Source of the DNA: Escherichia phage slur07 | Sequence record: NC_028780.1 | DNA: 64,000 nt | Direction: 5' to 3' (one strand) | Part shown: in pieces, positions 34,989 through 36,713 of the stretch | How the letters are laid out: every line of letters starts with the position of its first letter | Numbering within the stretch: position 1 is the first letter of the stretch | Position numbers and translations under genes: made by a program | Notes under the pieces: model-generated | The model's input: only the letters and a program-made list of their open reading frames with translations | The model's database searches: none | Told to the model about the DNA's origin: nothing

Positions 34989-35477
34989 ATGAATATATTT
35001 GAAATGTTACGTATAGATGAAGGTCTTAGACTTAAAATCTATAAAGACACAGAAGGTTATTACACTATTGGCATTGGTCATTTGCTTACTAAAAGTCCAT
35101 CACTAAGCGTTGCTAAATCTGAATTAGATAAAGCTATTGGGCGTAATTGCAATGGTGTAATTACAAAAGACGAGGCTGAAAAACTCTTTAATCAGGATGT
35201 TGATGCTGCTGTTCGCGGAATTCTGAGAAATGCTAAATTAAAACCAGTTTATGATTCTCTTGATGCTGTTCGCCGCTGCGCATTGATTAATATGGTTTTC
35301 CAAATGGGAGAAACCGGCGTGGCAGGATTTACTAATTCTTTACGTATGCTCCAACAAAAACGCTGGGATGAAGCAGCAGTAAATCTAGCCCAATCTAAAT
35401 GGTATCGTCAGACACCTAATCGCGCGAAACGCGTAATCTCAACATTTAAAACAGGAACTTGGAAAGCGTATATATGA
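34989..35477 (+). CDS. e: lysozyme (endolysin, T4 e family)
   Basis: 162 aa [35 protein letters not shown]..., near-identical to T4 lysozyme with a few substitutions and a shorter C-terminus; two late promoters upstream. Confidence 0.95.
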
Positions 35478-35755
35478 AAACATATAGTGAATTTTTATCA
35501 GAATCTATTCTTAACGAAGCTACTGACACATTTGCAACTAAGCTAGGTGCAGCTTTGGTTGAAGCTGAAAGTCTATTAGCACGTATTTCTGAACTTGCTA
35601 GTAAGATAGATACTCGCAAATTTGAACGTACCAGCGATATCGTTAAGCTTGAAGCCTTGTTGCGTATGTGCGATAAACCAGAAGAAATCGCTAAGAACGG
35701 CTCGCTAATGAAACAACGTCTTGAAAAATATATTTCAGGCGCTTCAGAAAAATAG
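35474..35755 (+). CDS. internal protein with capsid targeting sequence (CTS)
   Basis: 93 aa from ATG 35474 (ATGA overlap with e stop): [16 protein letters not shown]... Confidence 0.7.
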
Positions 35756-35756
35756 T

Positions 35757-35786
35757 GTTTACTTCCTCCAAGGACTTTGATACTAT
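35757..35786 (+). promoter_or_regulatory. early promoter for denV, GTTTAC / 18 bp / TACTAT
   Basis: GTTTAC 35757-35762, TACTAT 35781-35786. Confidence 0.65.
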
Positions 35787-35813
35787 ACATTCATCAACTA
35801 CTTGGAGGAAATT

Positions 35814-36230
35814 ATGACTCGTATCAATTTAACACTTGTTTCTGAACTGACCGACCAACATCTTATGGCTGAGTATCGTGAATTGCCGCGTGTTTTTGGT
35901 ATAGTTCGTAAACATGCGGCAAATGGTAAGCGGGTTAAAGATTTTAAAATATCTTCCGAGTTTATTTTAGGCTCTGGTCATGTTACGTTCTTTTACGATA
36001 AGTTAGAATTTTTGCGAAAGCGTCAATCAGACATTATAACGGAATGCTTAAAACGTGGGTTTAGTATAAAAGATACTGAAGTTCCTGACATCAGCGATAT
36101 TCCAGCAGAATGGAAAAATGATTATAATCCATGCAAATCAGCTATTAAATTGAGTCAACAACGACTCGATGAAAAAATTTTAATGAAGCCACACTGGTAC
36201 AAGTATTACGGCAAAAATATTTACATTTAA
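35814..36230 (+). CDS. denV: endonuclease V (pyrimidine-dimer DNA glycosylase)
   Basis: 138 aa from ATG 35814 with SD GGAGGAA: [29 protein letters not shown]..., matches T4 endo V; early promoter 35757-35786. Confidence 0.93.
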
Positions 36231-36239
36231 AGGAAACAT

Positions 36240-36713
36240 ATGAAAACATATCAAGAATTTATTACTGAAGCAGCTATTAATTCTCAAATTATTGCTGAAT
36301 CTTTTACTGATCTTTTGAAATTTAAAAAAGGTCAAAAAATCACTGCTGTATTGGATGATGGTACAGAAGTTGAGATGGATGTACAGGGATATAATTATGC
36401 AGTAGATGGAAAACTGTATAATAAATCTCATGCTAAATTTGATTCATTTGACGACTTTGTTAATACAGTTGAAGATGAAAAAACTCGTAGATCCATTGCA
36501 ACTGGTGATGCTAAGGTTCTTATGGCACACGGCCATGAACGCATTCGCGCTAAGCAGAATAAAATGGGCGAAGATAATTTCGCATTAGTTGGTTATCAAT
36601 CTGGTAAACAAACTTATGGTTATCAGCGTACTGCTACCATGTATAACAAAAATGGTAAAATCGCTTTCGTGAATAGTAAAGGTTCTGTTCAGTACGTCAA
36701 ATCATTCAAATAA
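36240..36713 (+). CDS. internal protein with capsid targeting sequence (CTS)
   Basis: 157 aa MKTYQEFITEAAINSQIIAE...; SD AAAGGAAA. Confidence 0.7.
   Translation: MKTYQEFITEAAINSQIIAESFTDLLKFKKGQKITAVLDDGTEVEMDVQGYNYAVDGKLYNKSHAKFDSFDDFVNTVEDEKTRRSIATGDAKVLMAHGHERIRAKQNKMGEDNFALVGYQSGKQTYGYQRTATMYNKNGKIAFVNSKGSVQYVKSFK

Follow-up and report, generated by a model that had tools for sequence, protein, structure and literature searches.

What are the two small genes which enclose denV in this T-even-type phage, and do they belong to the arsenal of proteins that such phages inject together with their DNA? A preliminary description of the 64,000-nucleotide stretch analysed here (the window) placed genes of 93 and 157 codons on either side of denV. 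It regarded them, with two further genes carrying a similar N-terminal motif, as putative internal head proteins and candidate anti-defence effectors whose targets cannot be inferred from sequence. The window extends approximately from gene 18 (the gene 17-18 region lies at the left edge) to the alpha-glucosyltransferase gene. As a DNA alpha-glucosyltransferase is encoded, the phage is of the T-even type with glucosylated hydroxymethylcytosine DNA, and its DNA is thus a substrate of type IV restriction enzymes. A 2.6-kb stretch around the denV locus is 99.3% identical to Escherichia phage vB_Eco_Geo and 98-99% identical to Kha5h, Kelasse and ime09, all belonging to Tequatrovirus, and the same gene arrangement is found in at least 173 deposited phage records at a query coverage of 80% or more. 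In Kha5h, whose genome is 98.8% identical, the genes for gp20, gp67, gp68, the gp21 protease, the gp22 scaffold and gp23 adjoin the window edge, on its outer side.

The open reading frames, together with the Pyr_excise match of the intervening product, which is 77% identical to T4 denV, confirmed that the two genes flank denV (Table 1). Two minus-strand open reading frames in the same region (35446-35790 and 36180-36431) found no support and were treated as spurious.

Table 1. Positions of the features discussed, numbered from the first nucleotide of the window
Feature	Position	Strand	Basis or content
ip6, 77 aa, leader MKTYQEFIAE	27086..27319	+	PHROG 8111; ipI locus between 57B and trna.4
Cassette with fourth leader-bearing gene	30563..31157	+	Repeat, late promoter, ORF, repeat
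Two T4-type late promoter boxes, TATAAATA at 34955 and 34968	34955..34975	+	Exact matches, upstream of e
Endolysin gene e, 162 aa	34989..35477	+	Glycoside hydrolase/lysozyme in near-identical phages
Ip5-like putative internal head protein, 93 aa	35474..35755	+	PHROG 3499, similarity to T2 Ip5
T4 early-type promoter, GTTTAC, ~17 nt, TACTAT	35757..35787	+	Consensus match only, before denV
denV, pyrimidine-dimer DNA glycosylase (endonuclease V), 138 aa	35814..36230	+	Pfam PF03013 Pyr_excise, E 6e-14; PHROG 1183
ip4, putative internal protein 4, 157 aa, DUF7412	36240..36713	+	Pfam, PHROG, identity to T2 Ip4
vs.8, frameshift-split; 33-codon N-terminal fragment 36755-36856, rest in ORF 36819-37406	36755..37406	+	Translation compared with T4 vs.8

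The shared motif was evaluated with a six-frame regular-expression scan of the window (M[KR][TS][YF].[EQD][FY][ILVM].[EQD]). Exactly four matches were obtained, all on the + strand and all at the start of open reading frames (27086, 30644, 35474 and 36240), against a chance expectation of 0.001 calculated from six-frame residue frequencies; none of 400 shuffled windows contained a match. Beyond residue 10 the four proteins showed no significant similarity by BLASTP, either among themselves or to T4 IPI, IPII and IPIII, and both the number of genes and their lack of relatedness after the leader were therefore as first described. Y4, F7, I/L8 and E10 are present in all four proteins, and the leader codons differ among the genes while the residues stay conserved. 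In proteins of this kind the propeptide ends at an I/L-x-E motif located at residues 8-10, or up to about residue 19 as in IPI. Such motifs are found as ITE10 and IAE20 in the 157-aa protein, LSE10 and LNE15 in the 93-aa protein, IAE10 in the product of the gene at 27086, and LNE10 and LNE15 in that of the gene at 30644. In T4 IPIII the first ten residues are enough for packaging (PMC9026906); residues 4 and 7 are the main determinants of targeting, while processing is governed by residues 8 and 10 (Mullaney & Black 1996, summarised in PMC9026906), with gp21 cleaving after the Glu of I/L-x-E (PMC12991175). Moreover, foreign proteins enter T4 heads on the 10-residue leader alone (PMC3012670, PMC9026906), so that a leader-bearing protein made late would be packaged. 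A depletion of internal I/LxE sites was considered as a sign of protease exposure and set aside as uninformative, the expected count being below one per protein. PDB chains were searched with the sequences of the four proteins and yielded nothing significant, and a search of NCBIfam gave no match.

The longer of the two genes flanking denV is, on homology, ip4. Its product starts with MKTYQEFITEAAINSQ (leader MKTYQEFITE/AAINSQIIAE/S), matches Pfam DUF7412 over residues 1-157 (E 1.1e-95), falls into PHROG 3155 ('internal virion protein'), is identical to T2 Ip4 at 156 of 157 positions and shares 99.4% identity with the Ip4 of RB14 and RB32; the Ip4 of T2, K3, RB14 and RB32 is essentially the same protein. 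It is nearly invariant, with at least 95% identity across about 305 phage records, and more distant homologues (61-71% identity) occur in phages of Klebsiella, Salmonella and Serratia. In an alignment of homologues down to 61% identity, M1, K2, F7, E10 and E20 (the latter within I-A-E) are invariant and the positions between them vary conservatively, a pattern which points to the peptide, and not the DNA, as the target of selection. Structure prediction was among the approaches proposed in the preliminary description. The AlphaFold2 model of Ip4 (pLDDT 78, pTM 0.73) comprises a low-confidence stretch of 20 residues (below 50 at residues 10-18) followed by a mixed beta/alpha domain from about residue 21, so that E20 would be located at the border between leader and folded domain. 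The model did not lead to an informative fold relative, as its sole viral fold match in BFVD was annotated 'Ip4 [Enterobacteria phage K3]'. No mention of Ip4 was found in the literature searched.

The shorter gene encodes what is best described, from its similarities, as a divergent member of the Ip5 family residing at a different locus. The 93-aa protein matches PHROG 3499 ('internal head protein', E 1.2e-46), carries the label 'internal head protein' in the RefSeq records of Kha5h, ime09 and p000v, and is 48% identical to T2 Ip5 over 84 aa (BLASTP, E 5e-23). The link to Ip5, obtained by tblastn, extends to the genes annotated ip5 in T2, PP01 and wV7 (47-51% identity), which lie at the ipI locus. 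With these proteins it has in common a homologous helical mature domain and an aligned I/L-x-E cleavage site at residue 15, ITE15 in T2 and LNE15 in the window. Ip5 proper is encoded between 57B and trna.4, bears the leader MKTFKEFATKTTITE and lacks E10, whereas the gene examined here lies between e and denV and has a T4-IPII-like leader with an additional site at E10; unlike Ip5 proper, it has no promoter of its own, and its start overlaps the stop codon of e. The ten-residue leader is followed by SILNE and A, so that gp21 may cut after E10 or after E15, and in the natural variant P0004 E10 is lost and LNE15 kept. The mature form would be of about 78-83 aa and nearly neutral (pI 6.3-8.1), in contrast to the basic T4 internal proteins. 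Two further I/LxE motifs are situated inside a predicted long helix. The AlphaFold2 model is all-helical (helices 10-44, 54-64 and 69-91); its global confidence is low (pTM 0.35), insufficient for a fold comparison to be meaningful. Copies with at least 80% identity were found in about 237 phage records, and a deep homologue search of 5.8 billion proteins retrieved no more than five clusters, all near-identical.

The e-to-vs.8 interval in which the two genes reside is the same that holds ipIII and ipII in T4, and the GenBank labels of the Ip4 homologue include 'IpIII' in one record and 'internal head protein II' in another. The two genes could on these grounds be taken for diverged orthologues of T4 ipIII and ipII displaced around denV, but such a history is hardly credible: their products belong to different PHROG and Pfam families, their lengths are 93 and 157 aa against 193 and 100 aa in T4, and in a BLASTP search of the mature parts against IPII and IPIII the best E-value was 0.025, over a short stretch of low identity. 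Orthology to IPII or IPIII, which the preliminary description had named as an outcome that would overturn its reading, was refuted at the sequence level, none of the similarities being significant. The reading as leader-bearing internal proteins is instead supported by homology to the named families Ip4 and Ip5 and, for the gene at 27086, Ip6.

The arrangement differs from that of the T4 set, as had been suspected. The order in the window is e, the 93-aa gene, denV, ip4, vs.8; it is e-ipIII-ipII-denV-vs.8 in T4, e-ip4 followed by vs.8 fragments in T2, which lacks denV, and e-denV-ip4-vs.8 in HY01. In T6, e is directly followed by regB, with no ip gene at the locus, and in Bas45 (PaulHMueller) the 93-aa gene and denV follow e, ip4 being replaced by two other leader-bearing genes (MKMYQEFIAE... 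and MKTYQEFIAE...). The window, T2 and HY01 are alike in having ip4 on the e-proximal side of vs.8; it comes directly after e in T2 and after denV in the window and in HY01. The interval between e and vs.8, including denV, is a known swap site for internal-protein cassettes, and T4, T2, T6, HY01 and Bas45 all differ there. The T-even internal proteins have been described as a diverse set with only the leader in common (Rao & Black 2010, citing Repoila et al. 1994; PMC3012670), and at least ten ip genes have been reported (Silas et al. 2025, PMC12373910). The right-hand border of the cassette site is vs.8. A G+C-richer stretch at 36714-36830 was evaluated as a structured RNA and rejected: its fold z-score was 0.28, it corresponds to the 5' fragment of the frameshifted vs.8, and a Rfam scan of the window returned only tRNAs, located elsewhere.

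Expression of the two genes seems to be tied to that of e. An ATGA at 35474-35477 contains both the ATG of the 93-aa gene and the stop codon of e, and alignment indicated that the 3' end of e is altered with respect to T4 and HY01. Having no promoter of its own, the 93-aa gene is probably translated together with e. Only 9 nt separate denV from ip4, which lacks its own late promoter, and a simple scan of positions 34400-37500 detected no terminator-like site on the + strand. The two TATAAATA boxes upstream of e are the likely source of late read-through across the 93-aa gene, denV and ip4, through which ip4 would be expressed late. Alignment with T4 and HY01 showed that the early-type promoter element located before denV is also present in T4 before denV, ipII and ipIII. 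The ip4 leader region, AAAAATATTTACATTTAAAGGAAACAT-ATG, is common to T4 ipII, T4 ipIII and T2 ip4; its copy in the window coincides in part with the end of denV.

The position of ip4 directly behind an early-type promoter and denV invites a different account, according to which the leader serves mainly as a handle for recombination at the DNA level and the two products are cytoplasmic early proteins, co-expressed with denV and left unpackaged. The leader of about 30 nt together with the first 30 coding bases, AAAAATATTTACATTTAAAGGAAACATATGAAAACATAT, is common to T4 ipII and ipIII and T2 ip4 at the DNA level and overlaps the 3' end of denV in the window, and repeated promoter and terminator elements flank the cassettes. 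A pure DNA handle would not account for the fact that residues are conserved while codons or neighbouring positions vary, as seen in distant Ip4 homologues, in the homologues of the 30644 protein and among the four window genes, nor for the conserved positions being exactly those needed for targeting and cleavage in T4 (PMC9026906). We consider this account quite improbable. Packaging of the 93-aa and 157-aa products as internal proteins is, in our judgement, the probable outcome, with good confidence. The virion proteomics papers located, on the SH7 and HY01 proteomes, reported neither Ip4 nor the 93-aa protein. Also counting against the reading are, for ip4, its place behind the early gene denV and the want of a separate late promoter and, for the 93-aa protein, the near-neutral pI, the extra I/LxE motifs in the long helix and the low global confidence of the model.

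The function of related proteins offers a guide to what the two packaged products would do. T4 Ip1, Ip2 and Ip3 each inhibit one distinct GmrSD variant (PMC12373910), and IPIII is required on ECOR17, host-expressed IPIII being active also when the leader is left off (PMC9391042). A fourth case has an orthologue in the window. The product of the gene at 27086, whose leader is identical to those of T4 IPII and IPIII, shares 77-87% identity with the products of genes labelled ip6 or ipVI and can accordingly be assigned to Ip6. Over its full length it is 83% identical to Bas37_0260 at the same locus (Bas37 is phage KarlGJung, and gene 0260 its Ip6), a leader-bearing protein of the ipI locus which is reported to inhibit McrBC (HIDEN-SEQ preprint, bioRxiv 10.1101/2025.11.20.689424). 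Internal proteins can therefore target type IV enzymes besides GmrSD. The sequence of Bas37_0260 is unrelated to the 93-aa and 157-aa proteins, and for these two it constitutes a precedent only. The earlier statement that the characterised internal proteins are anti-restriction factors agrees with Ip1, Ip2 and Ip3 (GmrSD) and with the Ip6 orthologue (McrBC). Its companion, that targets cannot be inferred, still applies to Ip4 and the Ip5-like protein but only in part to the set as a whole, given the McrBC inhibition reported for the Ip6 orthologue.

Like T4-type internal head proteins, the window proteins are small, leader-bearing and equipped with a gp21 motif, and in both cases they are encoded at non-essential hypervariable loci of a phage with glucosylated hydroxymethylcytosine DNA. 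An anti-defence role of the 93-aa and 157-aa products is rather to be expected, with less confidence than their packaging. For Ip4 the most obvious class of targets is partly excluded: none of the GmrSD variants examined was reproducibly inhibited when ip4-10 were supplied in trans (Silas et al. 2025, PMC12373910), and GmrSD-ECOR17 and GmrSD-ECOR21 both restrict T2, whose Ip4 is 99% identical to that of the window (PMC12373910). The absence of a GmrSD target among ip4-10 would also suit proteins which are packaged for a structural purpose, i.e. neutralisation of DNA charge or assembly of the core and head, and which have no specific anti-defence target. T4 internal proteins are basic and present in about 360 copies per head, and IPIII mutants display slower head assembly and smaller bursts (PMC9026906), while contacts to DNA phosphates have been seen only from Lys residues of the internal proteins (PMC3012670). 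Mature Ip4 is likewise basic (computed pI ~9.2), and its near-invariance is not the pattern expected under diversifying selection. A purely structural role is nonetheless unlikely, since every internal protein with a determined function, namely Ip1, Ip2, Ip3 and the Ip6 orthologue, is an inhibitor of type IV restriction, the mature 93-aa form is not basic, and T6 without an ip gene at the locus, T4 without Ip4 and HY01 without the 93-aa gene are all viable.

The genes, their motifs, their family membership and the polymorphism of the cassettes were established directly; the route from late transcription through packaging, cleavage and injection to an action against host defences is inferred, as follows. 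The 93-aa protein and Ip4 would be made late, from transcripts starting at the two promoters upstream of e, with the 93-aa gene additionally coupled to the translation of e through the ATGA overlap. The capsid-targeting sequence, through Y4 and F7, would anchor each protein on the prohead's gp22 scaffolding core, where gp21 would remove the propeptide by cutting after Glu, at E10 and/or E20 in Ip4 and at E10 and/or E15 in the 93-aa protein. Once matured, the two proteins would remain in the head with the DNA and be injected alongside it. In the cell they would most likely act by stoichiometric inhibition of a first-line defence, probably a modification-dependent nuclease or a similar system.

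As internal proteins arrive together with the DNA, they represent the earliest countermeasure of the phage; they help to set host range and are relevant to therapeutic T4-like phages. Near-identical copies of Ip4 (about 300) and of the Ip5 family (about 240) are common in the phage collection searched, and both are reasonable candidates for target screens of the kind already under way. The experiments put forward in the preliminary description have in part been performed by others. The set itself is not new: three of its four members already have names, which reviews attribute to Repoila 1994, and with the class, the leader, the cassette polymorphism and the gene names all established, the finding adds no new principle. 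It is possible, although we would advance it only tentatively, that Ip4 and the Ip5-like protein counter defences other than GmrSD (e.g. another modification-dependent nuclease or a non-restriction system) and that the family of the gene at 30644 is a further class of injected proteins; if so, the injected anti-defence arsenal of T-even phages is broader than the named Ip set.

The one modestly new point is provided by this fourth gene, which lies outside the denV locus singled out in the preliminary description; its family, with a conserved leader and a late promoter of its own, is never annotated as an internal protein among the matches listed. The gene forms part of a self-contained unit of 559 bp, at either end of which a terminator hairpin recurs as a direct repeat of 36 nt, in the order repeat (30563-30598), late promoter TATAAATA (30596-30603), open reading frame (30644-31117) and second repeat (31122-31157). 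The repeat is present in one copy in T4, T2 and T6, which lack the gene, and in two copies in phages which have it. The 157-aa product, starting MKSYAQFLNE/AVLNE/A, belongs to the RB32ORF133c family (PHROG 2280, 'unknown function'), with 510 matching records, and is a 'hypothetical protein' in all matches listed; in Kha5h the open reading frame is intact but missing from the RefSeq annotation. The start M-x-(K)-F/Y-x-x-F-L-x-E is kept in family members of less than 40% identity, and it is also found in homologues from Klebsiella and Yersinia phages with different C-terminal halves.

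The fourth leader-bearing gene, of the RB32ORF133c family, occupies a repeat-bounded unit of 559 bp (within 30563-31157), in which a terminator hairpin is followed by an TATAAATA late promoter, the gene itself and a second terminator repeat. The 36-nt terminator repeat is present in two near-identical copies, one on each side of the gene. The window, Kha5h, KIT03 and Bas43 all combine this type of gene with two copies of the repeat, whereas T4, T2 and T6 are without the gene and have a single copy. Among the records listed, the family is labelled "hypothetical" throughout, and in the Kha5h RefSeq entry the gene is without any annotation, with the open reading frame (ORF) intact at positions 5905-6378 of the Kha5h record. 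Its distant homologues keep the leader and have divergent C-terminal halves. A metagenomic protein of 94 aa, P0033, is a chimera of an N-terminal portion from a trna.3-like protein (compare 27526-27945 in the window) and the last ~30 residues of the 30644 protein, which implies a deletion across the whole tRNA region in some phage. Within the tRNA cluster (tRNAs at 28843-30246) lies a 216-aa ORF (29087-29737), in the same position as a gene annotated as segB/homing endonuclease in KIT03 and Bas43.

Upstream of denV, the endolysin gene e and the 93-aa internal-protein gene overlap, stop codon on start codon, in the tetranucleotide ATGA (35474-35477), and the e product (162 aa) ends in ...WKAYI in the window versus ...WDAYKNL in T4. 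Taken together, the overlap and the altered C-terminal end suggest a cassette junction lying within the 3' part of e, and translational coupling between e and the 93-aa gene.

A conserved leader of ~40 nt, AAAAATATTTACATTTAAAGGAAACATATGAAAACATAT, lies 5' of ip4 in the window and in T2, and of both ipII and ipIII in T4; in the window it also supplies the final codons of denV. In T4, moreover, the 3'-terminal stretch of e (ACTTGGGACGC...) is found a second time 3' of ipIII. The shared leader and the T4 copy of the e end are compatible with an exchange of cassettes via short repeats. In place of ip4, Bas45 (phage PaulHMueller) carries genes for 86 aa (MKMYQEFIAE...) and 104 aa (MKTYQEFIAE...), both labelled "hypothetical".

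Features and their coordinates in the window and in related phages
Feature	Record	Position	Remark
RB32ORF133c-family gene, leader-bearing	window	30644-31117	157 aa
AAAAATATTTACATTTAAAGGAAACATATGAAAACATAT leader region	window	36200-36270	
AAAAATATTTACATTTAAAGGAAACATATGAAAACATAT leader region	T2 (L004)	2395-2460	
AAAAATATTTACATTTAAAGGAAACATATGAAAACATAT leader region	T4 (L002)		ipII/ipIII leaders
Post-denV slot	Bas45 (L009)	2261-2899	two small leader-bearing genes
vs.8 N-terminal fragment	window	36755-36856	33 codons; matches T4 vs.8 residues 1-32; stop TAG
vs.8 remainder	window	within ORF 36819-37406	different frame

Downstream of ip4, vs.8 is broken by a frameshift in the window (36755-37406), and this split accounts for the seemingly intergenic, G+C-richer stretch that follows ip4. 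T2 likewise has vs.8 in pieces, annotated as vs.8-A and vs.8-B.

The Ip6 gene (27086-27319) shares 83% identity with Bas37_0260 of phage KarlGJung, reported as an McrBC inhibitor in a 2025 preprint (bioRxiv 10.1101/2025.11.20.689424); the KarlGJung GenBank record labels that gene only as "hypothetical protein".
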